From Minisyncoccota bacterium (GTDB lineage Bacteria > Patescibacteriota > Minisyncoccia > UBA6257 > GWB1-50-10), in NCBI GenBank assembly GCA_020059915.1, contig JAGVBB010000003.1, positions 233,625 to 297,624 of the forward strand: 64,000 nucleotides of DNA, read 5' to 3'. Numbering within the stretch: the stretch's first letter is position 1; each line of letters begins with the position of its first letter. The translations under genes and the position numbers were made by a program. A model generated the notes under the pieces. That model ran no database searches. It saw only the letters and a list, made by a program, of their open reading frames with translations, and was not told the DNA's origin. Positions 3,894-58,400 of this stretch are shown one piece after another.

Positions 3894-4739
3894 CTATTTT
3901 TTCATTACATCAATAAATCTCTCTGGGTCCACTGATATTCCATGTATCTTTAAAGAAAGGTGGAGATGTGGTCCAAATGAATATCCAGTATTTCCTACAA
4001 AACCAATCTTTTCACCCGCTCTCACCAACTCCCCATCTCCTTTTAATCGCTCATCAAGGTGCATATAAAGCGAAAAAACACCCCTACCATGGTCTATAAT
4101 AATGGTATTTCCATATACCTCATCAAAATAAGATTTTGATACAATTCCTCCAGAAATCGCATACACCTCACTTCCTTTTTTGGCCTTATAATCAATACCC
4201 CAATGCCTAATAATTGTTTTCCCCGTCTTTCTTATCTCCCCATATGGACTTGTAATTTCGTCTGCTGTAAGAAGTGGAGATTGAAATCGTTCATTAAAAT
4301 ATACAAACTCAGTTTTTTTTCCCACCACCTCGTCTATTGCAACCTTCTCTTTAGATAAATTTGAAACCAAAGTATCAGTAGTAAGTGTTGAGCCCTTCGG
4401 AATACCTAAAGAAACAGAGGGAAATTTTTTTGCTCTAATCCATATAGTACGCGTTGCGAGAGATCCATCAGAAAGTATTACATATAAAATATGTTTTTTT
4501 ATCGGTTCGTTCCCAGCGATAGGAATAAGTGCAACAAAATTGCCATTATATGGGAAAAAAGAAACAGATGCATTTTTAAAAAATGCATACGCTACTCCGG
4601 AATTTTCAAGCGTAACCCTAACTACGTCTCCTTGAAAGGGGCTATTTGTTGAAAGAGTGAGCCGTGGTTTTGATGCACCAAAAACAAATATAGGAGAGAA
4701 ACAAATAATACACACAATAAAGATGACTAACTTCTTCAC
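3894..4739 (-). CDS. M23 family metallopeptidase (LytM-like)
   Basis: C-terminal HxxxD ... GxTGxSxGPHLH motif (GNTGYSFGPHLHLSLKIHG), with N-terminal signal peptide. Confidence 0.85.
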   Translation of the reverse strand: MKKLVIFIVCIICFSPIFVFGASKPRLTLSTNSPFQGDVVRVTLENSGVAYAFFKNASVSFFPYNGNFVALIPIAGNEPIKKHILYVILSDGSLATRTIWIRAKKFPSVSLGIPKGSTLTTDTLVSNLSKEKVAIDEVVGKKTEFVYFNERFQSPLLTADEITSPYGEIRKTGKTIIRHWGIDYKAKKGSEVYAISGGIVSKSYFDEVYGNTIIIDHGRGVFSLYMHLDERLKGDGELVRAGEKIGFVGNTGYSFGPHLHLSLKIHGISVDPERFIDVMKK

Positions 4740-11485: not shown

Positions 11486-12721
11486 TTATCTCTCCATCAT
11501 TTTTTTAGCTCGCAATTCTTTGTGATATTTAATAGCAAATCGATGTGCCTCATCGCGAACAAAAATAAGTGTTTTTTCTGAAACTCCCTTCGGGATACTT
11601 CCGATAAACTCGTTTTTGTCTCTTTTTTCCCCTTTTGCAATTCCCACTATAGGAATTGTTATTCCCAATTCCCTTAATGTTTTTATTGTCTCGTTCACCT
11701 GCGGTTTACCCCCGTCAATCAAAATACATTGAGGAAATTCCCACTCAGTGTGCTTAAATCTTCGTAATAAGACTTCGCGTAACATTTTTACATCATTTGG
11801 CCCCTCAACTGTTTTTATTTGAAATTTTTTATACTGACTTTTTACTGGCAACCCATCCACAAATACCACCATACTCCCCACTGCAGAGGTCCCTGAAATA
11901 TTTGAAATATCATAGCCCTCGATTCGCTGTGCCCCAATTTTCAATTTCGAACCTTGCCTACCGGCAGGCAGGTTTTCAATTTTCAATTTATCTTCTGAGA
12001 TAAGAGCGGTGTCGCGAATGTGTGTAAGTGCAAAAATTTGTTTTTTTAATTTATTTGCTAACTCAAATTCCATCTTCTTGCTCGCCTGTCTCATTTCTCT
12101 CTCAAGTTCACCAAGAATAATATCTTTTTTTCCTTCAAAAAATAAGATAAGTTTTCTTATCATTTTTTTATATTCAATCGAATTAATTTCTCCAATACAG
12201 ATTCCTGGACACAGCCCAATCTCATATTCAAAACATGGTTTTTTATATGCACCAATTTTTGCTCCCTCGTGAATATTCCATGGAAAAATCTTTCGCAAAA
12301 TTCGCAATGCTTCCCGAATGCTTGATGCGGAAACATATGGACCAAATACTATTCCATTAATTTTTGAAAGATCCTTTCCGCGAACCAACAAAACACGTGG
12401 GAACAATTCCTTGGTTACTACAACAAACAAGAAACTTGTATCGTCTTTTTCCCGAATATTAAATGGCGATTGATGTTTTTTAATAAGCGCTGATTCTAAT
12501 ATAAGGGCTTCAAGTGCAGAACCTGTTTCTCTTGTTTCAATTAAATGAATTTGTGAAACCATTTTTTCTATACGCGCATCATGTGGACGCAAAAAGTAGC
12601 TTGAAACACGGCGTTTCAAGTTTCCTGCTTTTCCTATATATAAAATCTCCCCATTGGCATTTTTCATAATATAAACGCCGGGATTTTCTGATATATGCTT
12701 GTATAATTCACTCTTCACCAT
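11486..12721 (-). CDS. uvrC: excinuclease ABC subunit C (short form lacking C-terminal HhH)
   Basis: GIY-YIG N-terminus (YIMKNANGEILYIGKAGNLKRRVSSYF), UVR domain, and UvrC RNaseH-like endonuclease domain (IEGYDISNISGTSAVGSMVVF); 411 aa. Confidence 0.85.
   Translation of the reverse strand: MVKSELYKHISENPGVYIMKNANGEILYIGKAGNLKRRVSSYFLRPHDARIEKMVSQIHLIETRETGSALEALILESALIKKHQSPFNIREKDDTSFLFVVVTKELFPRVLLVRGKDLSKINGIVFGPYVSASSIREALRILRKIFPWNIHEGAKIGAYKKPCFEYEIGLCPGICIGEINSIEYKKMIRKLILFFEGKKDIILGELEREMRQASKKMEFELANKLKKQIFALTHIRDTALISEDKLKIENLPAGRQGSKLKIGAQRIEGYDISNISGTSAVGSMVVFVDGLPVKSQYKKFQIKTVEGPNDVKMLREVLLRRFKHTEWEFPQCILIDGGKPQVNETIKTLRELGITIPIVGIAKGEKRDKNEFIGSIPKGVSEKTLIFVRDEAHRFAIKYHKELRAKKMMER
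11932..11993. repeat. core fragment of the palindromic repeat family, in-frame inside uvrC and flanked by 13-nt direct repeats
   Basis: AACCTTGCCTACCGGCAGGCAGGTT (11950-11974) is flanked by caattttcaattt at 11935-11947 and 11977-11989; encodes KLKIE-NLPAGRQGS-KLKIG. Confidence 0.6.
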
Positions 12722-13432: not shown

Positions 13433-13435
13433 TTA

Positions 13436-13470
13436 ACCCCGCTAGTCTATGGATTAGCGGGGATTTTTAT
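13436..13470 (+). terminator. terminator hairpin CCCCGCTAGTCTATGGATTAGCGGGG plus T-run (bidirectional)
   Basis: Lies between convergent tdk and patatin genes. Confidence 0.7.
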
Positions 13471-22636: not shown

Positions 22637-24709
22637 TTATTTATCAGAAAAATGTTTTCGTGCTTTTTCTTTTTCCTCTTTATTCTTTTTTGTTGTTTGT
22701 TGTTTGTAGTTGGTGGTAAGTTGTTTTATCTCATCTCGCAGTAATGTTGCCAACTCAAAATTCAATTCTTCCGCTGCCTCTTTCATTTCGCGCTCTTTTT
22801 CTTTCAATAGCTGTTCTATCCCCTTCTTTGTCTTTGGAGCACCACGCAATTCAATCTCTGCAATTTTTTCTGTCGGCAAAATATCTTTTATCTCCTTAAT
22901 AATTGTCCTTGGAGTGACATTATTTTTTTTGTTATATGCTAACTGAATCTTTCTTCTTCTCTCAGTCTCACGAATTGCGCGCTCCAATGATCCAGTAACT
23001 TGATCTGCATACATAATAACCTCACCACGAATATTTCTTGCTGCACGCCCTATTGTTTGAATGAGTGAGGTCTCGCTTCTCAAAAACCCTTCTTTGTCTG
23101 CATCCAAAATTGCAACCAGTTCAACTTCAGGAAGATCAAGCCCTTCTCGAAGAAGGTTTACCCCAACCAAAACATCAATGGTACCTCGTCGTAAGTCAGT
23201 AAGAATCTTTATTCTATCAAGTGTTTTAACATCACTATGAAGGTATGAGACTTTCATCTGCTTTTCCTCCAAGAAATGTGAAAGATCTTCTGCCATACGT
23301 TTGGTAAGTGTTGTTATCAATACACGAGGTTTTATCCCATCGTCATTAGGTTGTCTTTTTTCTATATGACTGATGAGGTCCTGAACCTGCCCACGAGCAG
23401 AACGAATAGTGACCTTTGGGTCTACAAGCCCTGTTGGACGAATAATCTGTTCAACAATCTGCCCCTCTTTCCTAGATTTTTTTCTTTCAAATTCTGCAGG
23501 TGTTGCGGAAACATAAATTGTCTTATCTGTGCGCTGTTCAAATTCCTTAAAATTAAGTGGTCTGTTATCCGCCGCAGATGGGAGACGAAAACCAAACTCA
23601 ATTAATGTTTTTTTGCGAGCGGCATCTCCTGCGTACATCCCTGCTATTTGTGGTACGGTCACGTGCGATTCATCTATTATCGTGATAAAATCTGCCTTTC
23701 CTTTTTTGTCTTTAGGAAAATAATCAAGCAATGTGTCTGGTGGTTCCCCTGATGCACGACCGGAAAGGTGTCGGGAATAGTTTTCTATGCCGTTGCAATA
23801 CCCTATTTCATCAATCATCGCACAATCAAATTTTGTTCTTCGTTCCAATCGTTCTGCTTCCAGTAATTTTCCTTCACGCTCAAATTTTGCAAGTTGTTCC
23901 TTTAATTCTTTCTTTATTTCCTTGATTGCTTTTTTCCTTGTATCCGTTTTTGTAATAAAATGTTTTGCTGGAGGAATAAACACCGCCTTAAGTTCTGGAG
24001 TCTCGCCACGAACAAATCCCTGAACAGGATTTATCTCATAAATTTTCTGAATAATTCCATCATGTATTTCAAATGAATAAATAACCTCCCTATCAGTGGG
24101 CATAATTTCCCATTGATCTCCCCGTACACGGAATGTTCCACGTTTTAAATCGGACGTTGTCCGAGAAAACTGTAATTCCACTAATTGTTTTATCAGCTGA
24201 GTCCTATTTACCGCCCCCCCTTCTTCAAAATGAAAAATATGTTCCTTATATACTTCTGGGGTTCCCAATCCATAAATACAAGATACTGAGGCAACAACAA
24301 TGACATCACGCCGAGTAAGCAGTGCAGTTGTTGCCGCATGACGAAGTTTGTCAATTTCTTCGTTAATCATCGCTTCCTTATCAATATAGGTATCCGATGT
24401 TGGAATATATGCTTCTGGTTGGTAATAGTCATAATAAGAAACAAAATAATGAACCGCGTTATGGGGAAATAATTCTCGAAGCTCATTACATAGCTGTGCG
24501 GCAAGGGTTTTATTGTGTGCAATGACAAGTGCGGGAGTATCAAGCTCCGCAATAACATGCGCAACAGTAAATGTTTTTCCCGATCCGGTAACGCCAAGCA
24601 GTGTCTGTGATTTCATCCCTTTTTTGAAACCAGAAACAAGCGATGTAATCGCCTGTGGCTGGTCCCCCGCGGGCTTGTTATTACTAACTAATTGAAACAG
24701 TTTTGGCAT
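22637..24709 (-). CDS. uvrB: excinuclease ABC subunit B
   Basis: GVTGSGKTFT Walker A, YYDYYQPEAY beta-hairpin motif, helicase motifs and C-terminal UVR domain; 690 aa. Confidence 0.9.
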   Translation of the reverse strand: MPKLFQLVSNNKPAGDQPQAITSLVSGFKKGMKSQTLLGVTGSGKTFTVAHVIAELDTPALVIAHNKTLAAQLCNELRELFPHNAVHYFVSYYDYYQPEAYIPTSDTYIDKEAMINEEIDKLRHAATTALLTRRDVIVVASVSCIYGLGTPEVYKEHIFHFEEGGAVNRTQLIKQLVELQFSRTTSDLKRGTFRVRGDQWEIMPTDREVIYSFEIHDGIIQKIYEINPVQGFVRGETPELKAVFIPPAKHFITKTDTRKKAIKEIKKELKEQLAKFEREGKLLEAERLERRTKFDCAMIDEIGYCNGIENYSRHLSGRASGEPPDTLLDYFPKDKKGKADFITIIDESHVTVPQIAGMYAGDAARKKTLIEFGFRLPSAADNRPLNFKEFEQRTDKTIYVSATPAEFERKKSRKEGQIVEQIIRPTGLVDPKVTIRSARGQVQDLISHIEKRQPNDDGIKPRVLITTLTKRMAEDLSHFLEEKQMKVSYLHSDVKTLDRIKILTDLRRGTIDVLVGVNLLREGLDLPEVELVAILDADKEGFLRSETSLIQTIGRAARNIRGEVIMYADQVTGSLERAIRETERRRKIQLAYNKKNNVTPRTIIKEIKDILPTEKIAEIELRGAPKTKKGIEQLLKEKEREMKEAAEELNFELATLLRDEIKQLTTNYKQQTTKKNKEEKEKARKHFSDK

Positions 24710-32318: not shown

Positions 32319-32328
32319 AAATTCAATG

Positions 32329-32450
32329 TAAAATTCTAATTTCTAAGCCCTAAATTCTAAATAATATCAAAACTCAAATATTCAAATGACTTTTGATAAT
32401 TCTTATTTTGGATTTGTTTAGGGTTTCTATATTAGTGCTTAGGGTTTTTA
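32329..32450. repeat. diverged copy of the palindromic repeat family (lacks the GC-rich core hairpin)
   Basis: ccctaaattctaaataatatcaaaactcaaatatt ... ggatttgtttagggttt ... attagtgcttagggttt aligns with elements at 51921, 52674 and 54303. The tail supplies the stop codon of 32432..32968. Confidence 0.55.
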
Positions 32451-34290: not shown

Positions 34291-34300
34291 ATTTTAATAA

Positions 34301-34410
34301 ATTCTAATTTCTAAATCCCAAATTCTAAATAATATCAAAACTCAAATATTTAAATTAACTTCTTCAATTCGTGTTTTTTAGGATTTCGATATTAGTGCTT
34401 AGAGTTTATT
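34301..34410. repeat. diverged copy of the palindromic repeat family (lacks the GC-rich core hairpin)
   Basis: Very similar to the copy at 32329-32450. The tail gtttatttaa supplies the stop of the CsaA-like gene. Confidence 0.55.
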
Positions 34411-35678: not shown

Positions 35679-38600
35679 TTAATATGTTATTTTGACCATT
35701 CCATGACCAGAACGAACCCCTGCGGTATTTGTTTGGTTTGTTCCGGAATTATAACTTCCACCTCCACCGCCATATGTTGAGCTTCCGCTCCATGATGCCG
35801 AAGTTCCACCTCCAGAATAACCTCCCCCTGCTCCTGGTCCACCGAGCTGTCCACCACCACCGCCACCATATCCACCATAATTTTCTGTTGTGTAACAACT
35901 ATTTCCTGTTCCTCCTGCCCCACCATTTAAATAACTCTGTCCTCCATATGCGGTTGCGCAATGAGTTCCTCCATCCATTCCATTTGTACTAAATCCTCCT
36001 CCCGCTCCTCCTGCATAACTTTGGTTTGAACTACCACCTGATCCCGCAGACCCTCCAGTTCCAGTACCTGCACAACTAATCGTTACTCCAGAGGTTCCCG
36101 ACTGACCATTTCCCTCAGACGCTGTGCGCGTACATGATGTCCCATAACTTGTTGCTGGACCACCACCACCGCCACCTGCGATAATGAGTGGTACATTTCC
36201 TGTTTGTTTCACAACAAACGTTCCACCGCCACCACCATTTTCATTTCCGTGTGCTCCACCATTGCTACCTCCTTGTTGACCAACGAGAATTTTAATAACA
36301 TCTCCAGCAGTAAGAGATACTGTTCCCTTAACATATGCACCAAGTCCACCTGTTAAACTATTACTACCTGTACCACTTCCACCCTGTGCCCCCCACGCTT
36401 CAATAATATATGATCCCGTTGTCGAAGCAGTAAATGTTTGCAAACTTCCCGTTCTTCCCGTGGTAATATTATTAAATGTTACCGTTATTGGATTTGTTGG
36501 GGTTGCTGTTACCTCAGAACTCAATCCACTTTCCCCTGCTGGATTTACTGAAGAAACCTTATAGTAGTAAGCCATTACACTCAATCCAGAATCTACATAC
36601 GAAGTTGAGGTCACATTAGAGGTTAATAAAGAATATCCACTTCCCGATGTTGTGCTTCGATATACATTATATGAATATGCAAGCGCACAAGAATTTCCTG
36701 TTGGTGCAGTCCATGAAATAGTATTTGAAAGAGCACCAGGCGTTGCTGTTGCACCCGTTGGCGCACTAGGAGCAGAAAGTCCATTTGGACAAGATGCTGC
36801 GTAACAAACCAATTCTGTATTTGATCCAATATTTTGTGTCGATGTCGCCATACCCCACCCCGCAGGACAGGAAAGTGATTGATTTGCTCCTTTAGCACGC
36901 AATGTAAATGATTGAAACGGAGCATCGGTGCGATAACAAATCTGCTCGTTTACATCAACCCCATCTATAGTCACCGTACTTGTTGGTGCAGAACTCCATC
37001 CTGATGGGCAAGAAGGGGCGGGAGAAGAAATTATTTTATAGCAGGCACTATCATAGGTCGTTTGCGAGCTATATCTCTTTCGCGTGTAATTTTGGTTTGT
37101 ATATTTTGTATATCCTGTTGGACAGGTAATACTATTTGAAGCAGCATTTGCATTGTATACAAAAGTATCAGATACCCCAGAATTTGTATTATTTATACAT
37201 GCACCTGTATATGCCTGATATCCAGAAATTGGAGCATTATAATATACCGCAGAGGTATTACTCCAATTGGTAAATCCACTCGGACAACTCACTACTGAGG
37301 TTGGATTTCCCAATCCCGTATATGATTCCCAAATAAATGATGGAGGATTTCCTTTATAACACGCACCTGAATAAACCTGATCAATGCCTGCTGGGCTATA
37401 AACATACTGTCCTACCCATCGTGTATATCCTGTTGGGCAGGTCACGCTCGTTGCTCCCGAATATGATTTCCATGTAAATACATCATTTGTTGCACTTGCG
37501 TTATAACACGCTCCCGAATATGACCAATAATCATATGTATAGTCATATTGCGAACACGTAGGCTCATCAACACAATATTCATACCATGCTGGTCTCCATC
37601 GCGCATAACTGTTATCGTACCAGTTAGTAAGTCCTGTTGGGCAGGTTTGCGTACTAGCGGTATATGCACTCCAAGAAAATGACGGTAATGTCGTTCCCTT
37701 ATAACACACACCGTCATATTTGCTAGTACTATTGTCCGGATCTACATCCCACCATGTGTTAACCCATCGTGTATATCCTGTTGGGCAGGTCACACTTGAT
37801 GGTGATGGTGATCGCCACTTAAATAAATCGTTTGATGCTGATGTTGGATAACACGCACCTGTATATGCAACATATCCACTCTCACTTGAACTATAATATG
37901 CATTAGAACTCCACCACTTGGTATATCCCTCTGGACAAGTTATGTAGGTATCAGGACTATAATTGTTTACTAATTGCCAAGTAAATGATCTTGGGTCCGA
38001 GCTCCCCGATCGCAAATACATAACATTGTCACTTGCACCTAACGCCACCACCTGTGCGTTATATATCTGCCATGTTCCATTACCACTCGCATCCACTGTG
38101 AGAACATACCCCGGCGTTGCCGATGTCCCCAACTGGAATCCATTCATTTTTATTGTCCCATACACATCAAGTTTTGCTGTTGGGGTTGAGGTTCCAATAC
38201 CAACATTCCCCGTATTAATGGAATATAAATTTGAACCTGATGCATTCCAGAGTGAATATGCAGAAGAATCTGCATATGATTTTGTTGCAACATGTCCCAC
38301 CGCTGTTGGTGATCCAACAATGACAGCCCCATCAAACTGTCCCGCGCCAACAACATCAAGAGTATATGCGGGCGTTGTTGTTCCAATACCAATGTTCCCC
38401 GCATTGGTCATAGTCAATCGATATGCCGAAGTGTTGTTATTATAAAAATGCAAAGCACTTCCTGCAGAAACCAATTCCCATGATGATCCCGTTGAAAGCA
38501 AGCGAATGGAACCACTACTCCCCCCTGTTTCAAATGTCGCTAATACTCCCGATGGTGGTGCAAGATTATATAAATGAAATGGATATGTTGGATTGGTTGT

Positions 38601-39047
38601 ACCAATACCAACGTTTGTCCCGTTATTAAACAAAAGAGAGGTTGCAACCCAACTCGAACCACTATGACGAAGTGTTTGCCCCGATGTACCACTCGCTATT
38701 CCCCCACCAACCATTGAATCAACATAACTTTTTGTCACTGCGTGCGTTACTCCTGTTGGGGACCCAACAAACACCGGAGAAGAAAAATATCCCTTCCCTG
38801 TTACTTGCAATTTATACGACGGATTGGATGTATATATTCCAATATTTCCCGTGGAATTAATTACAAATAAATCATTTGATCCAAAGATAATATCATTTCC
38901 ACTTCGTTCATTTAATTTCAAAACCGCACCAGTGTTTTCAATTGAAGAAGTATTTTGATCAATAGTGATATATTGTGCGGACACAAACTCCCCCACAAAG
39001 AATGTGAGAATAATTATTATGAAGATGATAAATGATTTATATTTCAT
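35679..39047 (-). CDS. giant secreted modular surface protein 1 (tail-fibre-like repeats, two-Cys tandem repeats, Fn3, ALK/LTK-type glycine-rich domain)
   Basis: Signal peptide, N-terminal NIGIGTTTPAYTLDV / ATKSYADS repeats, about 9 repeats of V.CPTGYT.W...Y.GACY, an Fn3 (YNVYRSTTSGSGYSL), and a C-terminal WGAQGGSGTG...ILVGQQGG...GGGGGTFVV...IIAGGGGGG glycine-rich domain. Confidence 0.8.
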   Translation of the reverse strand: MKYKSFIIFIIIILTFFVGEFVSAQYITIDQNTSSIENTGAVLKLNERSGNDIIFGSNDLFVINSTGNIGIYTSNPSYKLQVTGKGYFSSPVFVGSPTGVTHAVTKSYVDSMVGGGIASGTSGQTLRHSGSSWVATSLLFNNGTNVGIGTTNPTYPFHLYNLAPPSGVLATFETGGSSGSIRLLSTGSSWELVSAGSALHFYNNNTSAYRLTMTNAGNIGIGTTTPAYTLDVVGAGQFDGAVIVGSPTAVGHVATKSYADSSAYSLWNASGSNLYSINTGNVGIGTSTPTAKLDVYGTIKMNGFQLGTSATPGYVLTVDASGNGTWQIYNAQVVALGASDNVMYLRSGSSDPRSFTWQLVNNYSPDTYITCPEGYTKWWSSNAYYSSSESGYVAYTGACYPTSASNDLFKWRSPSPSSVTCPTGYTRWVNTWWDVDPDNSTSKYDGVCYKGTTLPSFSWSAYTASTQTCPTGLTNWYDNSYARWRPAWYEYCVDEPTCSQYDYTYDYWSYSGACYNASATNDVFTWKSYSGATSVTCPTGYTRWVGQYVYSPAGIDQVYSGACYKGNPPSFIWESYTGLGNPTSVVSCPSGFTNWSNTSAVYYNAPISGYQAYTGACINNTNSGVSDTFVYNANAASNSITCPTGYTKYTNQNYTRKRYSSQTTYDSACYKIISSPAPSCPSGWSSAPTSTVTIDGVDVNEQICYRTDAPFQSFTLRAKGANQSLSCPAGWGMATSTQNIGSNTELVCYAASCPNGLSAPSAPTGATATPGALSNTISWTAPTGNSCALAYSYNVYRSTTSGSGYSLLTSNVTSTSYVDSGLSVMAYYYKVSSVNPAGESGLSSEVTATPTNPITVTFNNITTGRTGSLQTFTASTTGSYIIEAWGAQGGSGTGSNSLTGGLGAYVKGTVSLTAGDVIKILVGQQGGSNGGAHGNENGGGGGTFVVKQTGNVPLIIAGGGGGGPATSYGTSCTRTASEGNGQSGTSGVTISCAGTGTGGSAGSGGSSNQSYAGGAGGGFSTNGMDGGTHCATAYGGQSYLNGGAGGTGNSCYTTENYGGYGGGGGGQLGGPGAGGGYSGGGTSASWSGSSTYGGGGGSYNSGTNQTNTAGVRSGHGMVKITY
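36830..38000 (-). repeat. intragenic tandem array of ~135-nt units encoding the two-Cys repeat (CPTGYTxW...GACY)
   Basis: Recurring near-identical DNA words such as ggtatatcctgttgggcaggt at 37425, 37780 and others. Confidence 0.7.
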
Positions 39048-39050
39048 AGT

Positions 39051-42000
39051 TTATTTTATCCACAGCCGTCCATATCCTCTTGACGATGCTGAACCACATC
39101 CATTTACTGGATACGAATCATATCCTGTATATGCCTGATATGGATATTGATAGTGTGGACCATTACATATACCACTTGGATTTCTTCCTCCAACTGCTGG
39201 ACTGTTCCCTGTATACCCCGTACCAACTCCAGAACAGTAATTATCTCCACAAGCAGCTAAACAATCTGGATTTGTTGGATAACTTGCATAGTTGGTCCAA
39301 CTTACCCACCATCCACGTTGCGTTGTATCTCTATCGTATGAGTTCCAAGTCCAGTTTGTACGATCATGGAATGTGGTTGCGTTATATGGCGAACAATAAA
39401 ATCTAAATATTCCCAAACTTCCCGAGGCGGTTCGAATTTGATTTATAACAGTATCAGAAAACTTCCCCTTATCATCTTGCGTCCATGTTGATTTTGTACT
39501 CCACCCACTCTGTTCTGTTGTTTGTCTATGATTTGCATTTGCTGAATCAATTCCTGCAACAAGTGTCCAACCCCCTCCATCGGTGGTCATATCACAATAT
39601 GCTCGAAATGCATCACTTGTTGAACCACCATTTGGATCTATCCAATAAGTACCATCAGTCTTTGATGGGAATGCAGTCTTAATCACCTTGCAAGAAATTC
39701 CAGCAAAAGTCTGTGAGGATCCATCTGGGTCTGAAAGCGGAACAGCACTCACCTCACTACTTTGTGCACTTTCACCACCACTGTTTACTGAAGAAATTTT
39801 GTAATAATATGTCGGATAAGTTCCACTCCCTAAAATCTTAAATTCTATTTCTGCAATTCCACCATTGTTATATCCAGTACCAGAGACCGCCACAAGTTTG
39901 TAATAACGATATGCAGTAGTGTTTGCACTTAAGTCACCAAAATAACTTGGTTGTGCAACTCCACCCGGCGCAGTATATACCGCAGAAATATCAGTCCACG
40001 TTGAATTATTTGTTGATCCTCGCCACTGATAATTTCCCGTTTGTGCACCACCGCCACCCCACGTATATCGAGCCTCTGTAATAGTAATTGCAGAACCAAA
40101 ATCAAATGTTATTGATTGTCCAGAAAATGAAGTTGTTTGGAGATATGCGATAGTCCCCGTATTTCCATCAATCATGTTTGTATTTGGATACCCAGAATAA
40201 CTCCATAAATTATCTGAGAGAAGTGTAATAAGTGATGTTCTATTTCCAATGCTTTGTGTTTGAGTATATGTTGATGTTGCGCTTGTGGTGATTGAAGTAT
40301 CTGAATACGTTGTACCTGCAATACCACTCGTAACAAGTGAGAATCCAGATCCAGAGGTTAAACTTCTATATATATTATATGTTTCTGGTTGCGAGCATAC
40401 TCCTCCACCACTTGGTGCTGTCCAAGAAAGATTTATACTTTGACTGGCTCCGGTAGCGGATGGACTAGTTGGAACATCCGGTGCAGTCATCCCCTCCGAG
40501 CAAGCAAAATAGCAGGCAAGTTCCGTGTTCCCTGCAACGTTGGTTGCGGACATTGCTGGAGCCCACGCAGCACTTGGACAAGAAATAGATTGCGAAGATC
40601 CTTTCTTTGTTATCTGCATTGTTGTCACCGCCGAATCAGTTTTGTAACAAATTTTCTCTTTTACATCATATCCATTGGTAAGTACTGTCTGACAAGTTGT
40701 TTCACTCCATCCAGATGGGCAGGATGGACACACTGTTGCATCAAACGTCTTGTAACAGGTTGCGTCCCATGCTTGGACACTAGATCCTCGTTTGTATGCA
40801 AATTGTCCGCTTTTATATTTTGTATATCCTGTTGGGCAAGTTACCGTGTCCGACGCCACCATCGTCTCAATATTAAATGCATCAGCACCAGTTGCAGTGT
40901 TACTTATACATGCTGCAGTATATGCATCATAACTATTTCCAGTTCTCCATTTTGCATTTGCATCATACCACTTGGTATATCCTGTTGGGCAGGTATTATT
41001 TGCCATATTCCCACCAGTGTATGCATCCCAAATAAATGATGTCGGATTCCCTTTATAACAAACTCCAGAATAATACTGGTTATTTCCTGGACCATATACA
41101 ATGTCACTTGGATACCACTTAGTGTATCCTGTTGGGCAGGTAAGAGAGGTTGGAGAGGTTGATTTCCATGGAAAATAGTCATTTGTTGCACTTGTGTTGT
41201 AACACGCTCCAACATAGCTATAGTATCCAGATCCAGAAGAATACCATTGTGCATTTGAATCAAACCATTTTGTATATCCCGTTGGGCAGGTAAGAGAGGT
41301 TGGCGTTCCAAGTCCTGTGTATGATTCCCAATTAAACGCTGTTGTTGGAGATCCTTTGTAACAAACGCCACTATAGTATGCCTGCGAAGAATAAATACCA
41401 TAACCATAATACGAGGTATTAACCCACCTCGTATATCCTGTTGGACATACTACCGAATTTGGAGATGTCATTGTCTTCCATGAAAAAATATCAGTTGTTG
41501 TATCCGCGTTATAACACGCCCCCTCATACGACACATTTCCCGAAAGGTCCGCATACCAATATGCATAACTCTGATCAAACCATTTTGTATATCCCGTTGG
41601 GCAGGTTACTGACGTGGGACTATTTGTTTCCCATGTAAATGAATTCATAATAAGTGTTATTGGGTTTCTTAATTTCATAACACTCGTTCCATATGCATTC
41701 CCAACATTTGCAATTGACTGCCATGTACCAACACCACTTGCATTTGCAATTAAAATATTTCCTGCAGTTGCGGAGGTACCCAACTGAAATGAGGACATTT
41801 TCACCGTTCCCATAACATCAAGTTTTGCCCCTGGTGAATTTGTTCCAATGCCAATGTTTCCTGATGGAACGGTATATGTGTTAGTACTTGATGACACCCA
41901 CATTGAAACTGCAAGTGCATCAACATATGCCTTGCTCGCCGCATGCCCCGCCGCGGTTGTGGTACTTATAAGAACAGGAGAAGAAAAATTTCCCGTTCCC

Positions 42001-42713
42001 GCAACATGGAGTAAAGACGCAGGAGATTGTGTTCCAATACCAACATTTCCTGCATTTGTTATTGTCGTACGATATTGTGATGTATTGTCATTATAAAATT
42101 GCAGACCGGATCCCGTCGCACCAATTTGCCACGATGATCCTGTTGATCCAATTTTTATAAATGAAGCGGATGTTCCTGTTTGAAAACGAGAAAGCACGGC
42201 AGATGTTCCGCTATATACATGCAGTGGGGCTGTTGGGTTTGTTGTTCCAACACCAATATTTGTTCCATTGTTGTAAAGTGTTGAATCACCAAACCATCCA
42301 GATCCAGTATTTCTTAATGTCTGCCCAGATGTTCCTGAACCAACTCCTCCTGCAATAGTAAAGTCTGCATAGGATTTTGTTGAAATATCAGAAGCGATTT
42401 GCGGTTCTCCAATGGTGAGTGGATTTACAAAATATCCAGCACCCTGCACATGCAATGGGTATTGAGGATTTGTTGTGTTTATACCAATCTTATCCCCTGA
42501 AGTATTTATATATATGATTCCGTCTCCTACTGAAATATCATATGCACTCCGTGCATTCAAATACAATGGTGCATACCACGATTCAACAGAATTACTATCA
42601 ATGGTAACGCTTTGTGCATACACTGATGAAAACGAAAACACAAAACACAACATAAATATGCTCAAAAATAAAATTCTATATGTACTTATATGCGTTTGTA
42701 TGTTCATTTTCAT
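39051..42713 (-). CDS. giant secreted modular surface protein 2 (tail-fibre-like repeats, two-Cys tandem repeats, Fn3, discoidin-like domain, C-terminal fibrinogen-related domain)
   Basis: Likely start MKMNIQTH... (signal peptide); the ORF track start at 42752 overlaps the upstream gene. The C-terminus DGTYWIDPNGGSTSDAFRAYCDMTTDGGGWTLV is a strong FReD signature. The mid-region ITFDFGSAITITEARY...YQWRGSTNNSTWTDIS is discoidin/F5-8C-like. Confidence 0.8.
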   Translation of the reverse strand: MKMNIQTHISTYRILFLSIFMLCFVFSFSSVYAQSVTIDSNSVESWYAPLYLNARSAYDISVGDGIIYINTSGDKIGINTTNPQYPLHVQGAGYFVNPLTIGEPQIASDISTKSYADFTIAGGVGSGTSGQTLRNTGSGWFGDSTLYNNGTNIGVGTTNPTAPLHVYSGTSAVLSRFQTGTSASFIKIGSTGSSWQIGATGSGLQFYNDNTSQYRTTITNAGNVGIGTQSPASLLHVAGTGNFSSPVLISTTTAAGHAASKAYVDALAVSMWVSSSTNTYTVPSGNIGIGTNSPGAKLDVMGTVKMSSFQLGTSATAGNILIANASGVGTWQSIANVGNAYGTSVMKLRNPITLIMNSFTWETNSPTSVTCPTGYTKWFDQSYAYWYADLSGNVSYEGACYNADTTTDIFSWKTMTSPNSVVCPTGYTRWVNTSYYGYGIYSSQAYYSGVCYKGSPTTAFNWESYTGLGTPTSLTCPTGYTKWFDSNAQWYSSGSGYYSYVGACYNTSATNDYFPWKSTSPTSLTCPTGYTKWYPSDIVYGPGNNQYYSGVCYKGNPTSFIWDAYTGGNMANNTCPTGYTKWYDANAKWRTGNSYDAYTAACISNTATGADAFNIETMVASDTVTCPTGYTKYKSGQFAYKRGSSVQAWDATCYKTFDATVCPSCPSGWSETTCQTVLTNGYDVKEKICYKTDSAVTTMQITKKGSSQSISCPSAAWAPAMSATNVAGNTELACYFACSEGMTAPDVPTSPSATGASQSINLSWTAPSGGGVCSQPETYNIYRSLTSGSGFSLVTSGIAGTTYSDTSITTSATSTYTQTQSIGNRTSLITLLSDNLWSYSGYPNTNMIDGNTGTIAYLQTTSFSGQSITFDFGSAITITEARYTWGGGGAQTGNYQWRGSTNNSTWTDISAVYTAPGGVAQPSYFGDLSANTTAYRYYKLVAVSGTGYNNGGIAEIEFKILGSGTYPTYYYKISSVNSGGESAQSSEVSAVPLSDPDGSSQTFAGISCKVIKTAFPSKTDGTYWIDPNGGSTSDAFRAYCDMTTDGGGWTLVAGIDSANANHRQTTEQSGWSTKSTWTQDDKGKFSDTVINQIRTASGSLGIFRFYCSPYNATTFHDRTNWTWNSYDRDTTQRGWWVSWTNYASYPTNPDCLAACGDNYCSGVGTGYTGNSPAVGGRNPSGICNGPHYQYPYQAYTGYDSYPVNGCGSASSRGYGRLWIK
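40500..41630 (-). repeat. intragenic tandem array encoding two-Cys repeats (paralogous to 36830-38000 and 44820-45900)
   Basis: ggtatatcctgttgggcaggt / ggtatatcccgttgggcaggt words at about 40975, 41125, 41275, 41440 and 41590. Confidence 0.7.
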
Positions 42714-42723
42714 AGTTTTTATA

Positions 42724-50647: not shown

Positions 50648-51889
50648 TTATTTATTATTTTTGTAATATGTATCCAGATTCAAACCCTCCCAATCGCTAC
50701 TTGAATAATTAGTCCAATCTTTTGCATCAAATCGTGGAGCAGTTAGACGATAACTTATTTCTAATTTTGAATTTTGAATTTCTAATTTTGAATTAGGAAT
50801 ACCGAATATCACAATCTTTTTGTTTTGTTCGTCTTTTTGATACCATACTTTGCCATCAAAGTTTGGAGTAAGAAGCACAGACACATGCTTCAATCCATTT
50901 TTTTCTACATCAATAGTATGTGCAAATAACCACACATCACTTCCTTTTTCTTTATTGTTTAAATCAATAGTATATGAATATAAATTCCCATTCAAAGTTG
51001 CAACAAGTGTAGCAACGTCACTGAGCTCTTCTTTCACACCACCAACCATTCCAGGGTTGTATGTTGCATATCGCTTCCCTTCTATGGTGTAAACTGGATC
51101 AAATGTCACCCCATCAATCTTGTTTGCAATAATATCTGCCGCCGCTGTTCCCTCATCTGCATAGATTTGTCCAGCAACTTGAAGTTTATATGTTGGATTC
51201 GTTATACCAATACCTACCCTTCCAGAACTATCTACATTTAAACGCCATGCACCAGTATGCCAAAAGCCAAATGCAGAGGTCCCAGTGTTATCTAAGGATC
51301 CTATAAACCTGTCTCCACTCCCGGAAGAGTCTGTAATCCAAATTCCAGCACTTCCATTAGAACCCTGTCTTATTCTAATTCTATCTGCAATATCTAATTT
51401 ATATCCAGGAGTTACTCCAATACCAACACTTCCATCTCCCGCAAAAACAACTGGATATGATGTATTCCCAAACATTCTAACTCCATTCCCTCCAGCAAAT
51501 TGCATTTCAATAAAACCATCGGTTCTGTTTATTTGGCTGGCATTCATGGTAAAGGCGCCACCGGCACCAACCTGAAGAACACCCGCAATAGTCGTGGTTC
51601 CTACAACATATAATGGTGAAGTTGGATTTGTTGTTCCAATACCAACATAGGTTGCCGCTTGTGGATAAATCTTTGTACTTGTTGCAGTCCATCCCCCACC
51701 CCCAATCGCTGATGCGCTATCAAGCGTTGAGCTGTCTGGAAATCGAATAACTTTTCCTGGCGAAAGAATAATATCTTTATCAATAGTAAGTGAGTTCTGT
51801 GCATATACAACGGCAACACCACTCAAGATCACGACACCCAAAAATAAGAGCGCTCCCGAAAACAATTTTTTGCGCAAAAAATGTTTCAT
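50648..51889 (-). CDS. secreted tail-fibre-like repeat protein with a C-terminal domain shared with 55488..59504
   Basis: Likely start MKHFLRKKLF (signal peptide); the ORF track start 51913 uses GTG. Contains VGIGTTNPTSPLYVVG, VGIGVTPGYKLDI and VGIGITNPTYKLQVAG repeats. C-terminal DPVYTIEGKRYATYNPGMVGGVKEE...EKGSDVWLF matches the C-terminus of the 1338-aa protein. Confidence 0.7.
   Translation of the reverse strand: MKHFLRKKLFSGALLFLGVVILSGVAVVYAQNSLTIDKDIILSPGKVIRFPDSSTLDSASAIGGGGWTATSTKIYPQAATYVGIGTTNPTSPLYVVGTTTIAGVLQVGAGGAFTMNASQINRTDGFIEMQFAGGNGVRMFGNTSYPVVFAGDGSVGIGVTPGYKLDIADRIRIRQGSNGSAGIWITDSSGSGDRFIGSLDNTGTSAFGFWHTGAWRLNVDSSGRVGIGITNPTYKLQVAGQIYADEGTAAADIIANKIDGVTFDPVYTIEGKRYATYNPGMVGGVKEELSDVATLVATLNGNLYSYTIDLNNKEKGSDVWLFAHTIDVEKNGLKHVSVLLTPNFDGKVWYQKDEQNKKIVIFGIPNSKLEIQNSKLEISYRLTAPRFDAKDWTNYSSSDWEGLNLDTYYKNNK
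50758..50799. repeat. 21-nt tandem duplication inside the CDS (encodes NSKLEIQ NSKLEIS) with similarity to repeat-element flanks
   Basis: tttctaattttgaatt ttgaa tttctaattttgaatt. Confidence 0.5.
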
Positions 51890-51920
51890 ATCTATAGAAT
51901 TAGTATAACACACTGCAATA

Positions 51921-52080
51921 AACTCTAATATCTAAAAACTAAATCCTAAACAAACCTGTCTGCCGATAGGTAGATTCAAATGACCAAAACTCAAAATATT
52001 TAGAACATTTGGATTTTGATATTGTTTAGAGCTTAGCCTGCCTGTCCGGTAGGCAGGAATTAGTGCTTAGAGTTTAATAA
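51921..52080. repeat. palindromic IVS-like repeat element, copy 1 (upstream of 50648..51889)
   Basis: aaactctaatatctaaa...caaaactcaaaatatttagaacatttggattttgatattgtttagagcttag CCTGCCTGTCCGGTAGGCAGG aattagtgcttagagtttaataaaa; the core hairpin is at 52037-52057. Confidence 0.8.
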
Positions 52081-52673: not shown

Positions 52674-52818
52674 AAAACTCTAATATCTAAACCCTAAATT
52701 CTAAACAAATTTAAATGACCAAAACTCAAAATATTTAGAACATTTGGATTTTGATATTGTTTAGAGCTTAGACCTGCCTGTCCGGTAGGTAGGAATTCGT
52801 GCTTAGAGTTTAATAAAA
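52674..52818. repeat. palindromic IVS-like repeat element, copy 2 (upstream of 52101..52658)
   Basis: Nearly identical to copy 1. The core at 52773-52793 has one substitution that keeps pairing only as G-U on the plus-strand transcript. Confidence 0.8.
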
Positions 52819-54302: not shown

Positions 54303-54448
54303 AAACTCTAATATCTAAACTTTAAATTCTAAACAAATTCAAATAACCAAAACTCAAAATATTTGAAACATTTGGATTTTGATATTGTTTAGGATTTAGA
54401 CCTGCCTGTCCGGTAGGCAGGAATTAGTGCTTAGAGTTTAATAAAAAA
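54303..54448. repeat. palindromic IVS-like repeat element, copy 3 (upstream of 52840..54273)
   Basis: Same architecture as copies 1 and 2; core hairpin at 54401-54421. Confidence 0.8.
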
Positions 54449-54991: not shown

Positions 54992-55480
54992 AAACTCTAA
55001 ATTCGAAAACCTAAACCCTAAACAAATTCTAATATCAAAAAAGATAAAACTATTTTGACTTCTCAATAATAGAACCGAATATCTTCATTAACTCTGTCGC
55101 CTCTTGTTTTAGTTCTTTTTGTTTCTCTTCGTCGTTTTGATTCACAAGAATAAGTGATAACCAATAAACACTTTCTTTTGCTTCTTTTCTACAAATTTTA
55201 ACTCTCATAACAAAATCTTTTTTACTTAGAGATTCGTTGGCTTCAATATAGTTAGCACCAACAGAACCCGCCGAACGAGCAAGCTGTTTTCCATATTCAA
55301 TAGTGGTGACCGATTTTGGAGCTTTATTTATTAAATCACGCACGTTTCGTGCAAAGATAAGCGTTCTCTCTTCAAGATCATATCCACCTTTTCTATTTTG
55401 AAATTCAACCATTTGAATTTTGAGATTGTTTAGAGTTTAGGCCTGCCTGTCCGGTAGGCAGGAATTAGTGCTTAGGGTTT
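54992..55480. mobile_element. copy 4 of the palindromic element, split into left (54992-55043) and right (55413-55480) halves by the embedded four-helix-bundle ORF
   Basis: The left half aaactctaaattcgaaaacctaaaccctaaacaaattctaatatcaaaa and right half ttgaattttgagattgtttagagtttagg CCTGCCTGTCCGGTAGGCAGG aattagtgcttagggttt together reconstitute copies 1-3, with the 363-nt ORF in place of the central loop. Confidence 0.7.
55050..55412 (-). CDS. four-helix-bundle protein (23S rRNA intervening-sequence protein family; same fold family as DGR Avd)
   Basis: 120 aa containing GSVGANYIEANESLSKKDFVMRVKICRKEAKESVYWLSL, characteristic of TIGR02436/PF05635. Confidence 0.75.
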   Translation of the reverse strand: MVEFQNRKGGYDLEERTLIFARNVRDLINKAPKSVTTIEYGKQLARSAGSVGANYIEANESLSKKDFVMRVKICRKEAKESVYWLSLILVNQNDEEKQKELKQEATELMKIFGSIIEKSK

Positions 55481-55487
55481 ACAGTTT

Positions 55488-58400
55488 TTATTTCTCCTTG
55501 AGAATAAACGATGGAGTTTCCTTTTGATCTTTGCTATATGTTGGCCACTCCTTCCAGTCATGGCGGTTACCAATAAGGCGATACGAAAATTCTGTCGGTT
55601 CATCTGCAAAGAATTTAATTGTTTTTCCGCTAATTATGTATCCCACACCAACCGTCGTCCCATACGGAGTTGTAATCGCTTGTACATTATCTTTTCCAAA
55701 ATCAACCGCCTGATACCAAAGCCACAAGTCGGAACCTCGTTCAATATTTGAGAAATCAATGACATATTGATACTCAGTTCCTCCAAATCCTAATTTCGAA
55801 CCTTGCCTACCGCCTGCCTGTCCGGTAGGCAGGGCAGACAGGTTTTGAATTTCTAAACAATTTTCTAAATCAGAATTCTCTAAACTATTTTGAGTTTTGA
55901 TATTTGAATTTTGGCATTGTTTAGAGTTTAGGGTTTCAGATTTAGAGTTTTGAAGAGTGAGTTGGCCTCGTCCAACGAACTCTTCTTTCACTCCTCCCGC
56001 AATTGAGGATGTATATGTTGCATATTTCTTTCCATCAATTTCATACAACGGGTCGATGGTCTGCACGGTAATTTTTCCAATAGAACCAATGTTTCCTCCA
56101 CTCAAAGTTATACTACTTGACGCATTCATCGTAAGATTTCCATTGATCGTCACCTGATTGTTAAACCATGATGTTCCTGATACATACAATCGATGAGTTC
56201 CTGGGTTTGTTGTGCCGACTGCAAGCTGTCCATTCATATAATTGATTCCCGTTCCATCAGATTGCACAGCACCAGCAAATTTTAATGATGTTCCCGTATT
56301 TGCAGGATCAATATAATAGGTGGGGTCGTTGTAGTCATAGTACTTGGTTGCACTGAGTGTATCAGTGAGTTGTCCCTGTCCAATAACATCAAGTTTGAGT
56401 GACGGACCTGCTCCACCAATGATTACTTTTCCTGTAGTGGCTGCAAGGGTTGAAGTACCCGATACATACATGGTGGCAAAGGATGCGGTTGAGGTTCCAC
56501 TTCCACCACTACCGAGAACAGAATCTACATATCCTTTTGTAGCAGCATGACCAGAATCACCTGGTGAACCAACAAAGATTGGATTTTCAAATTTAGCCGT
56601 TCCATTCACGTGAAGTAGATATGCGGGAGTGGTGGTACCGATACCGACATAACCACTTTCTCTAATGGACATTCTTTCTACTAAAGCTCCATCAACTATA
56701 GGATTTCTAACAAAAAACCCTAATCTTTGTTTATTGGTTATAGCATTGTTGTCTTCAATATTTATCCTTTTTATACCAACTGCATCAAAAAGATTAGTTG
56801 TAGCATTATAATAACCCCTAAATATAAGACCGCCATTTTCTCCACCAGTTGCATTTCGTTCTGAAAGATATATCTTTGCGGCATCGGCAGTTGCAGACGA
56901 AATTTCAAGTAACGATCCTGGATTTGTTGTTCCAATACCAACATTGCCATCCCCACTTATACTCATCGCATTCACCCAACTAAATGTCGATCCAGCAGTA
57001 CCGGTTGGTGCAACTTTGAAATCCATTGATCCAGCCGCATCTGAGTTCCAACCAATTCTCCCCGCACCACTAGCCAGAATGCGCTGCCACGCACCACCAC
57101 TATTAAAGAACGCATTGTTAACAATATAAGAATCTGCGGCAGAATCTCTTTGCATAATGTTAACAGGACCAAACATATTAAATTGATATCCTGCGTTTAC
57201 CGTTGAATAACCAGTTGAACCAACATGAAAACGTCCTTGTGGAGAAGCGTTCCCAATACCAGCGCGACCACTTGGAGTAACAGTAAATACCTCTCCACCG
57301 CCCGTTGAAGAATATGCGCGGATTAACAATGCTCCCGCATCACTTGAATAATTTTCTATATTTACAAGTTTTTGAGTTCCCACAGCTGTATTTTTTACTC
57401 TTAATAATTCATTTGTTGATGTGTCATATACTTCAAGTTTTGCGGCGGGGCTGGTTGCCCCAATACCAACCCTTCCATTGCCACCAGATGCGGAGAGAAA
57501 TGCAAAATTATTATTTGAATAAAAATTAGTAATAGCACTTGTTTGATCAATAGCAAATTGTCCAGTTCCATCTCCTATTGTAAAATCATTACCAGCATAG
57601 TTTGCTAGTGCTCCTATTTGTAATTTATTTGCGGGTGCCGTTGTCCCAATACCTACCCTCTCATTCGTCGCGTCAACTTTCAACACATTATTCGTACTTG
57701 CCGCTGCTTCAAATGTATAATTTCCTTTTCCTGCAGTGTATCCAAAGGTTCCTGCAGAGACATTACTTGCCCCCACATTTGTTGTCATTGTTCCCCCCGT
57801 TGTTATATTTCCCGAAACATACGCATTCCCCTGCACATGTAACGCCTGTGTCGGCGTTGATGTTCCAATCGCAACCCAATCGGTTGTGGTGGTGAGTGTC
57901 ACATAGGTCCCCGTTCGCGACCACCCCACAGAATTTCCCCCACCCCCCGCAGTTAACTGGATTGATCCATCAGGAAACTTGAACCCTCCTGTTGTTGACT
58001 CAACCACCCCCGCAACAGAAAGTTTTTGCGCTGGATTTGTAATACCTATCCCAACACTTCCATTAAAATATGATTTTGCAGAGCCAGTTGAATATACCGA
58101 ATAAAAATTATTTCCTCCATTATTTACATTAAGTTCAATACCAGAATTTGCTCCCGTTCCCGTTGATGTATTGGAAACCTTAATGCCAGATGTCTGCCAT
58201 GTTGGAGCACCACTTATATTGATATCAATTCCATAATTAATAACATCAGTTTGTGCATTTGTGGTAATTGCCAATTTTTGATTTGGATTTGTTATTCCAA
58301 TACCAACATTGCCCGTTGGGCTTATTGTCATTCTTTCTACTGGAATATCGTTTCCACTACCCGTTATACCAGTTCCTGATTTTGTAGCAAAAACAAGATA

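Follow-up and report, generated by a model that had tools for sequence, protein, structure and literature searches.

A short GC-rich palindrome lies within the uvrC gene of a Minisyncoccota bacterium, and two exact 13-nt direct repeats bracket it (contig JAGVBB010000003.1; the 64,000 nt from position 233,625 to 297,624 that were analysed are referred to here as the window). Is this the footprint of a transposon with a target-site duplication, as an earlier reading of the letters alone (the sequence-only reading) had tentatively proposed, or does the locus record a different kind of event? Comparison with relatives revealed a precise, duplication-free, in-frame insertion of 21 nt, a member of a dispersed palindrome family, into a pre-existing array of 7-nt units (heptamers). 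The features at the locus are as follows.

11486..12721, minus strand: uvrC, 411-aa short form with GIY-YIG, UVR and RNase H-like endonuclease domains (Pfam)
11952..11972, minus strand: palindrome, the inserted unit; 21 nt, imperfect; coding strand CCTGCCTGCCGGTAGGCAAGG
11936..11951, no strand assigned: heptamer array, promoter-distal part, plus strand AATTTTC AATTTCG AA; holds the first 13-nt repeat (11935-11947); found with Tandem Repeats Finder (TRF)
11973..11991, no strand assigned: continuation of the heptamer array, plus strand TTTTC AATTTTC AATTTAT; holds the second 13-nt repeat (11977-11989)

The palindrome in the UvrC linker

The host protein carries the three domains by which UvrC is recognised, a GIY-YIG nuclease (residues 14-85, Pfam E-value 1e-10), a UVR motif (203-232, 3e-7) and an RNase H-like endonuclease domain (260-397, 4e-41), and is without a C-terminal (HhH)2 domain. 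It is identical to the NCBI protein C4565_07420 of Candidatus Parcubacteria bacterium and has thousands of homologues, the best 120 of which are ~385-440 aa long. The inserted 21 nt encode L251-G257 (LPAGRQG) in frame, and the translation across the insert reads ...EDKLKIENLPAGRQGSKLKIGAQRIEG. The segment falls between the UVR and endonuclease domains, so that translation and Pfam boundaries agree with the earlier proposal of an in-frame family palindrome in this linker. According to the AlphaFold2 model, in which residues 236-264 have a confidence score (pLDDT) below 50, the insertion site is a predicted disordered inter-domain linker; this low score and the position between Pfam domains would explain why the insert is tolerated.

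The arrangement described in the sequence-only reading could be read directly from the window. On the plus strand, CAATTTTCAATTT (11935-11947) is followed by cg, AACCTTGCCTACCGGCAGGCAGGTT (11950-11974), tt and a second CAATTTTCAATTT (11977-11989), the sequence between the two exact repeats being cgAACCTTGCCTACCGGCAGGCAGGTTtt. Pairing of the palindrome reaches 11950-11974 through AA/TT. The uvrC palindrome has a single match in the window at up to 3 mismatches (0 in 100 shuffles), and as DNA it folds into a hairpin of -6.3 to -7.4 kcal/mol (z ~ -2 to -2.6). The window has 5 places with exact direct repeats of at least 13 nt spaced within 60 nt, as compared to a mean of 0.23 in 100 first-order Markov simulations of it.

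The flanks have a simple internal structure. TRF reports period 7 at 11973-11989 (2.4 copies, 100% match), and the whole plus strand reads AATTTTC AATTTCG AA, palindrome, TTTTC AATTTTC AATTTAT, each 13-mer comprising two heptamer units. On the coding strand the linker is ATTGAAA ATTGAAA A(CCTGCCTGCCGGTAGGCAAGG)TTCGAA ATTGAAA ATTGGGG. Taking out the 21 nt alone gives a regular 5-unit heptamer array again, with the entry point of the palindrome in the third heptamer.

The linker array in relatives

We aligned 26 UvrC orthologues, fetched the DNA of eight and compared 9 linkers at the codon level; metagenome loci supplied a further 31 linkers. Situated between HIRD and RIEGYDISN, the linker is hypervariable and in this Parcubacteria clade is made of 7-nt tandem units whose copy number, sequence and orientation differ between relatives. 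Palindrome-free linkers read ATTCGAA ATTAAAA ATTCGAA ATTAAAA ATT in P0009 and (ATTCGAA)x3 ATTGGAA in P0004, whereas in P0006, also palindrome-free, the heptamers have the opposite orientation, (AATTTTC)x4. Compared with P0009 and P0004, the window has exactly 21 extra nt and zero duplication. Because orthologues hold the same array without the palindrome and only 21 nt are extra, the flanks are not a target-site duplication: the array predates the insert, and the 13-nt repeats are best read, from these alignments, as units of a pre-existing period-7 tandem array with no transposon footprint.

A clear filled and empty pair was observed among the arrays of opposite orientation. P0010, L003 and L194 carry (AATTTTC)x4 together with an exact 18-nt perfect palindrome, CCTGCCTGCGCAGGCAGG, without duplication, while in P0006, L007 and L157 the (AATTTTC)x4 array is uninterrupted. 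Further GC-rich palindromes of the uvrC array measure 30 nt in L005 (P0003) and 27 nt in L181/L187, and distant Parcubacteria have unrelated heptamers at this site, namely GAAATTG x4 (encoding GNWKLEIGNS), AACTTAA and CTACAAA. The alignment that the sequence-only reading had called for supports lineage specificity, as the closest orthologues (75-90% identity) lack the palindrome; the eight closer relatives in this range are either without it or have other palindromes. P0040, at 60% protein identity, has CCTGCCTGCCGGTAGGC in its heptamer array at nearly the same position.

The linker varies in other ways as well. In the closest orthologue, P0002 (88-90% identity), its heptamer is on the opposite strand (AATTTTC) and reads NFQ, not KLKI. 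An 11-bp inverted repeat, AATTCGCAAAC/GTTTGCGAATT, occurs in L002:311-1513 and L008:10001-11203, where the right arm is the conserved L-R-I-E coding sequence; judged from these letters, L002/L008 and the window appear to differ by an inverted duplication or inversion inside uvrC between close relatives. Among the unrelated palindromes of this array, those of L005:367-1617 (P0003) are GTCAGCCCAAGGCTGAC and CCGCCTAGGGCGG, and the 27-nt palindrome of L181/L187 is centred on GAGCTC. No frameshifted uvrC allele was found among the uvrC loci inspected. The P0010 organism (L003:3092-4485) has, 1.5 kb downstream of uvrC, a diversity-generating retroelement made up of bAvd and an RVT_1 reverse transcriptase. 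A heptamer array (TTNYKQQTTKKN) is also present in UvrB, in its variable C-terminal tail, and differs from the L008 orthologue.

A palindrome family in bacteria and phages

Six copies of the family are present in the window. The canonical form is CCTGCCTGTCCGGTAGGCAGG, of which the uvrC copy is a reverse-orientation version with one extra base. The five copies outside uvrC are listed below.

52037..52057, plus strand: canonical copy CCTGCCTGTCCGGTAGGCAGG, intergenic, within a heptamer-built inverted-repeat element
52773..52793, plus strand: variant copy ...GGTAGGTAGG, intergenic
54401..54421, plus strand: canonical copy, intergenic
55442..55462, plus strand: canonical copy, intergenic
55797..55844, plus strand: copy 5, sister of the uvrC copy, inside a 1338-aa open reading frame (ORF); outer palindrome cgAACCTTGCCTACCG...GCAGACAGGTT

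Copy 5 bears the closest resemblance to the uvrC insert, as had been noticed: CGAACCTTGCCTACC recurs exactly at 55797-55811. Alignment shows that the uvrC copy corresponds to the outer palindrome of copy 5, with which it shares the derived extra T and the aatttcgaa/tttt flanks; at the centre of copy 5 is a nested canonical 21-nt copy (55813-55833). The peptide said to be common to UvrC and the 1338-aa ORF does exist, in a shorter form, GRQGSKL (...LPTGQAGGRQGSKLGF) and not AGRQGSKL.

Members of the family consist of 8-bp stems, CCTGCCTG/CAGGCAGG, around a centre of 2-5 nt, giving a unit of 20 or 21 nt, usually with a G.T mismatch in ...CCGGTAGG... and a DNA hairpin of -6 to -7 kcal/mol. A scan of GTDB, one genome per species, with the pattern CCTGCCTG(N0-1)CCGGTAGGC yielded at least 120 stretches, where ~140 chance matches are expected for a 17-base pattern. 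Among the matches listed, 101 of 129 (78%) continue with AGG, which completes the palindrome, against 1.6% expected. IMG/VR contributed 28 stretches with the full 20- or 21-mer. This excess and the viral stretches argue that the family is real.

The family is found almost unchanged in over 10 bacterial phyla and also in phage contigs. Hosts include Bacteroidota (among them isolates of Olivibacter, Arenibacter and Terrimonas), Ignavibacteriota, Chlorobiota and many Patescibacteria lineages, as well as Planctomycetota, Omnitrophota, Nitrospirota, Chloroflexota, Thermodesulfobacteriota, Bdellovibrionota, Gammaproteobacteria, Acidobacteriota and Stahlbacteria. The fetched loci contained further copies outside the search pattern, in which the stems are constant and the centre varies (CCGG, TCCGG, CGCA, TCGA). 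Many phyla share the imperfect sequence itself, down to the position of the G.T pair and the 21-nt variants with AAGG or a loop T.

The sequence-only reading had named one observation that would point to uvrC as the source of the element, distant UvrC orthologues sharing the segment at the nucleotide level. P0040 does share CCTGCCTGCCGGTAGGC, yet the same 20-mer is found at hundreds of unrelated loci in other phyla; for this reason, the palindrome did not originate in uvrC.

Among the phage loci, a 28.8-kb P22-like podovirus contig (L133, IMGVR_UViG_3300038551_000082) holds at least 8 copies, and its genes encode ordinary podovirus proteins and no transposase. Its glucosaminidase gene (L133:2955-3974) has at least 4 in-frame copies in the N-terminal linker, two of them nested, and also two copies of the variant CCTGTCTGCCGACAGGCAGG. 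Empty-site searches for two phage loci returned filled alleles only.

Targets, nesting and reading frame

If the family duplicated its targets, core copies should be flanked by short direct repeats, as the sequence-only reading anticipated. In 123 copies from other genomes, junction direct repeats of at least 3 nt were no commoner than chance, at 2% versus 2.8% for random positions in the same loci. Of 132 copies, 70% have G and 24% have A just before the unit (position -1), and 44% have G and 36% have T just after it (+1).

The family prefers loop-forming targets. Enrichment is seen where other inverted repeats have their apex (stem of at least 7 bp in 10% versus 1.5% at random) and within period-7 flank structure (5-11% versus 0.5-0.7%, ~10-fold); periods 7 and 14, the latter its double, stand out in the flanks, and 8 does so to a lesser degree. 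Among 165 copies, at least 8 are complete units lodged in the middle of another copy, in both relative orientations and with varying entry points (after CCTGCCTG, CCG, TCCGG or GGTA).

Most copies are intergenic; in low-GC loci ~86% of 116 copies lie outside long ORFs, and the 21-nt variants are found in long ORFs more often (9/35) than the 20-nt form (3/66; Fisher p=0.003). The frame is kept in all nine copies that have at least 100 open codons on both sides. These data demonstrate purifying selection for a length of 3n within genes. Among the host genes are those encoding TrpRS, ProRS, GlyRS, ArgRS, ValRS, RsmH, a Mur ligase, FtsW/RodA, an ATP-dependent DNA ligase, UxaC, trigger factor and a histidine kinase, proteins unrelated to one another, and the palindrome occurs in both orientations relative to genes. 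The added peptide is LPAGRQ[GAV] or LPTG(R)QAG. In TrpRS the insert matches an exact 7-residue gap relative to the solved structure 2a4m, and in RsmH, compared with solved structures, the region of the insert is itself variable.

Two further ideas were rejected. Splitting of genes by 20-nt copies with frameshifting or bypass had no case, given the 9/9 copies in frame, and cycles of 7-bp duplication and excision as the origin of heptamer arrays do not fit copies outside arrays, which lack a 7-bp flanking repeat.

The palindrome was also seen inside other short repeats. A CCGCCCAAGGCG/CGCCTTGGGCGG hairpin hosts a nested canonical copy in Magasanikbacteria (L037). Copies lie recurrently between a CCCCTCTCC-TTGG-GGAGAGGG hairpin and the GGGTGAGG that follows it, two parts of another widespread short repeat (L143:977-996, L144:332-351 and 4512-4531, L015, L055, L069, L098, L105 and L107); this context was observed in a viral contig with three copies and in several bacterial phyla.

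Origin of the insert

We propose, with a probability of roughly 0.6, that a frame-preserving 21-nt hairpin resembling repetitive extragenic palindromes (REPs) was inserted without duplication into the uvrC heptamer array, and that it is a non-autonomous element copied in trans. The imperfections that copies have in common (the position of the G.T pair, the 21-nt variants with AAGG or a loop T, the extra T of the uvrC copy and copy 5) point to templated copying and not to de novo snap-back. As for the mobilising mechanism, we infer that the hairpin would be a selfish element copied from a master copy and inserted into single-stranded DNA loops, such as those at hairpin tips elsewhere, in the loop of the hairpin itself or in slipped heptamer arrays. 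The likeliest route would be single-strand "peel-and-paste" by an HUH/Y1 enzyme similar to IS200 transposases or REP-associated tyrosine transposases (RAYTs), or template switching at the replication fork. Purifying selection would then remove all copies but those that keep the frame at sites, such as the UvrC linker, where an insert is tolerated.

Several observations weigh against this proposal. The genome sample was seeded by one sequence pattern and covers the matches listed only, which makes family-wide frequencies rough. The flank profile of 132 copies contained no conserved target motif beyond the purine at -1 and G/T at +1. The nearest palindrome-free type-A linkers belong to proteins only 77-79% identical to the UvrC of the window, and precise loss in relatives may be an alternative to gain. 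No transposase, HUH or reverse-transcriptase domain was found in the window ORFs scanned, and an all-against-all BLAST of 2017 ORFs near copies, from ~150 loci, revealed no recurrent neighbour gene. Finally, the one lead to a mobiliser, a Y1 transposase gene, failed: only L036 has an adjacent copy, and four further neighbourhoods of such genes (L205-L219) carry a different hairpin.

The Y1 candidates were obtained by phmmer with IS200 and RAYT sequences as queries, which identified Y1_Tnp genes in L036 (3706-4178) and L054 (3582-4046); the gene in L036 starts 15 nt after the end of a canonical copy. The Y1_Tnp genes in L054 and L205-L219 are flanked by the other hairpin, GCTCC-n3/4-GGAGC followed by GNCCTGT. 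Judging by this arrangement, the GCTCC-n3/4-GGAGC repeat looks like the cognate REP of those genes; it was not found in the window. The Y1 lead is not supported, and no cognate transposase was found for the palindrome family in the window ORFs scanned or at the loci compared. The proteins themselves (L054, L036, L205-L219) have 153 aa and share 65-96% identity across Bacteroidales, Ignavibacteria, KSB1 and Sphingobacteriaceae, with motifs DHMH ... WQ ... YVKNQEAHH like those of subclass 1.2 of Quentin et al. 2018 (PMC6006769). The GCTCC-n3/4-GGAGC hairpin forms 21-nt repeat arrays around the Y1_Tnp genes, and several contigs end right at these genes.

Alternative explanations

Homology-driven copying, in which a second heptamer array (copy 5, for example) would have been the source for gene conversion or template switching with no dedicated transposase, is doubtful as the explanation of the insert. 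Between the uvrC copy and copy 5, 20 nt are identical, among them the 9-nt flank aatttcgaa, and tttt-aattt on the other side and the derived extra T are also shared; palindromes are ~10-fold enriched in heptamer arrays, and neither a transposase in the window ORFs scanned nor a recurrent gene beside copies turned up. Since 9 nt of flank are shared with copy 5, gene conversion between similar heptamer arrays would be a serious alternative for the uvrC copy. However, most copies elsewhere lie in unique sequence without an array or shared flanks, nested copies sit in hairpin loops without flank homology, and aatttcgaa is already present in the palindrome-free P0009 array, so that the shared flanks may simply reflect similar targets.

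A bolder view than trans copying of a non-autonomous element, and one we consider unlikely, would dispense with any lineage-specific or cis-linked transposase. One near-invariant 20-21-nt hairpin replicator would spread in at least 10 phyla and in phages through a universal replication or repair activity that pastes it into single-stranded DNA loops (other hairpins, its own loop, slipped heptamer arrays). It would thereby tag essential proteins (tRNA synthetases, UvrC, ligase, FtsW) with the 7-residue LP[AT]G[RQ][QA]G, and heptamer arrays would be a second product or the preferred substrate.

It is very unlikely that the palindrome was already in the linker of a common ancestor with P0040 and was precisely lost in most descendants. 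P0040 (60% identity) does have CCTGCCTGCCGGTAGGC in the same array at nearly the same position, but all eight closer relatives are without it or carry other palindromes, the position in the heptamer differs (A^TTCGAA versus ATT^GAAA), and 17/17 identical nt are incompatible with neutral retention at 60% protein identity. The presence of the same 20-mer at unrelated loci in other phyla also speaks against this history.

We give little credence to a local de novo origin, by slippage or template switching on (CCTG)n/(CAGG)n-like sequence, with a convergent resemblance to the family. The linker is hypermutable, as its arrays expand and flip orientation between the window and P0002, L002 and L008 show an 11-bp inverted duplication of RIEG codons, and the stems are tetranucleotide repeats. 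Snap-back, however, would yield perfect palindromes related to local sequence, whereas here the same imperfect sequence, with its G.T position and its AAGG or loop-T 21-nt variants, recurs in many phyla.

A selected function is no more credible, whereby the hairpin or the array would regulate uvrC through mRNA or DNA structure, act as a phase-variable contingency tract, 7 not being divisible by 3, or supply a useful LPAGRQG loop. Nucleotide-excision repair could be toggled by heptamer tracts when these sit in a repair gene, arrays occur in the UvrB tail as well, and published REPs are over-represented in repair genes; against this, the palindrome is absent from the nearest orthologues and occurs in both orientations in unrelated host proteins, the uvrC loci inspected included no frameshifted allele, and the insert segment is predicted to be disordered.

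Almost no weight can be given to transposition into uvrC of an element or core akin to MITEs (miniature transposable elements with inverted repeats) with a 13-bp target-site duplication (29 + 13 = 42 nt), even though exact 13-nt repeats bracket the palindrome and their 42-nt period is divisible by 3: the repeat comes with the period-7 array itself, which is palindrome-free in P0009, P0004 and P0006, the 5-unit array returns on removal of just 21 nt, family copies elsewhere lack target-site duplications, and L003 and L007 differ by the palindrome alone.

For the uvrC locus, these results remove a false transposon signature and leave a unit of 21 nt, without duplication, in a hypervariable heptamer linker of a core repair gene. 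If a common mobilising activity exists, the family would be among the smallest and most widely distributed mobile sequences known. Filled and empty alleles would provide a tractable marker for hairpin-targeted insertion in uncultivated bacteria, and such inserts, together with heptamer tracts, account for many odd peptides of the LPAGRQG, PTGQAG and NWKLEI types, and for length polymorphisms, among proteins from metagenomes.

Other repeats in the window

Heptamer arrays are the dominant tandem-repeat class of the window, where TRF reported eleven period-7 array loci, among them 22689-22726, 32331-32362, 34298-34330, 42635-42650, 50757-50800, 54303-54334, 55887-55950, 59484-59512 and 60335-60360. 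Their units are AT-rich (for example TTTGTTG, AAATTCT, AATTTTG and GTTTAGA), and some arrays are coding, as in the UvrB tail and a 421-aa ORF (50648-51913).

An intergenic inverted-repeat element of ~150 nt is present at 51916-52083, 52668-52818, 54296-54446, 32327-32447 and 34295-34410, with further arms at 54988-55041 and 55404-55481. Its arms are heptamer arrays (AAACTCT AATATCT AAACCCT ... / ... GTTTAGA GCTTAGA). Because the copies at 32-34 kb are without the GC palindrome, the palindrome is a secondary insertion into this element. The arms at 54988-55041 and 55404-55481 bracket a gene (55050-55412) of the 23S rRNA intervening-sequence (IVS) protein family (PF05635, E 3e-14), an arrangement reminiscent of the stem that encloses the ORF of an IVS.

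Four very large paralogous ORFs (1122, 1233, 1399 and 1338 aa) occupy 35679-46923 and 55488-59504 and share many internal repeats (D1-D8). The 1338-aa ORF contains ~180 nt of heptamer arrays and nested palindromes in frame; this one, the only paralogue of the four that was scanned, had zero Pfam matches. A 33-nt terminator-like hairpin, AAAAAACCCGCTAGTCTATGGACTAGCGGGGTT, occurs at 454-486 and, inverted and 13 kb away, at 13435-13467 (85% identity). A search of the whole window against Rfam revealed no family at the gathering score, and relaxed thresholds around the elements gave chance-level matches only.

Comparison with known systems

Our literature searches, which covered the palindrome sequence, its peptides, palindromes of the candidate phyla radiation (CPR) and heptanucleotide repeats, found nothing relevant, and as far as we could search, the family is undescribed.

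The palindrome most closely invites comparison with REPs, hairpins of 20-40 bp with a terminal GTAG or CGTC tag that are mostly intergenic (Di Nocera et al. 2013, PMC3733652). REP and REPIN sequences owe their mobility to RAYTs (TnpA-REP), which are Y1 transposases (PMC3733652; Quentin et al. 2018, PMC6006769). REP stems often hold G.T pairs, some REPs sit inside "target palindromes", and in-frame REPs have been described in excinuclease ABC genes, UvrD, PolA, recBCD, DNA ligase and tRNA synthetases (PMC3733652). The family agrees with REPs in being a GC-rich imperfect hairpin of comparable size (REP stems measure 6-13 bp, with short loops), dispersed, mostly intergenic and free of target-site duplications, and it shares with them G.T stem pairs, in-frame genic copies and copies within other palindromes. 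It differs in that the terminal tag is absent, GTAG being inside the 3' arm (CCGGTAGGCAGG), and no cognate RAYT (Y1 HUH) gene flanked by the same palindrome was found in the window or at the loci compared. Its copies are mostly single units and not head-to-head dimers. Moreover, it recurs nearly unchanged in over 10 phyla and in phages, unlike REPs, which usually co-vary with the RAYT of a lineage, and neither self-nesting nor a link to heptamer arrays has been described in REPs.

Rickettsia palindromic elements (RPEs), 100-150 bp long, are found in Rickettsia in frame in housekeeping genes (PMC10969869). Like them, the palindrome is selfish DNA inserted in frame in unrelated housekeeping genes, with the peptide at tolerant surface or linker sites. 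In length and taxon the two part ways, as RPEs are ~100-150 bp, add 30-50 residues and are restricted to Rickettsia, while the palindrome here is 21 nt (7 residues) in very broad taxa.

The GC clusters of yeast mitochondrial DNA are likewise short GC-rich palindromes that spread through an AT-rich genome, where AT spacers and other clusters serve as insertion sites and a gene (var1) occasionally holds one in frame. They differ in being organellar, 30-50 bp long, often bordered by short duplications and unrelated in sequence to the palindrome family.

Hairpin elements derived from IS200/IS605 (palindrome-associated transposable elements, PATEs) resemble the family in the lack of terminal inverted repeats and target-site duplications, and the family's preference for loop-forming targets would be consistent with their hairpin recognition and single-stranded targets ("peel and paste"). 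They have distinct left and right ends and a defined target of 4-5 nt, whereas here the whole unit is a single hairpin and its flanks show no fixed target, only a preferred purine at -1. MITEs such as Correia/NEMIS, ERIC and RUP are likewise non-autonomous, dispersed and able to form in-frame fusions, but they are 70-300 bp long with terminal inverted repeats and target-site duplications; the palindrome has neither and, at 21 nt, is below the 50-500 bp range by which such elements are recognised.

Overall, because in-frame REPs in excinuclease and tRNA-synthetase genes have been published, the local uvrC finding is of a known kind, and the insert is an ordinary example of intragenic REP-like DNA. 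The family to which it belongs is unusually small, widespread and self-nesting.

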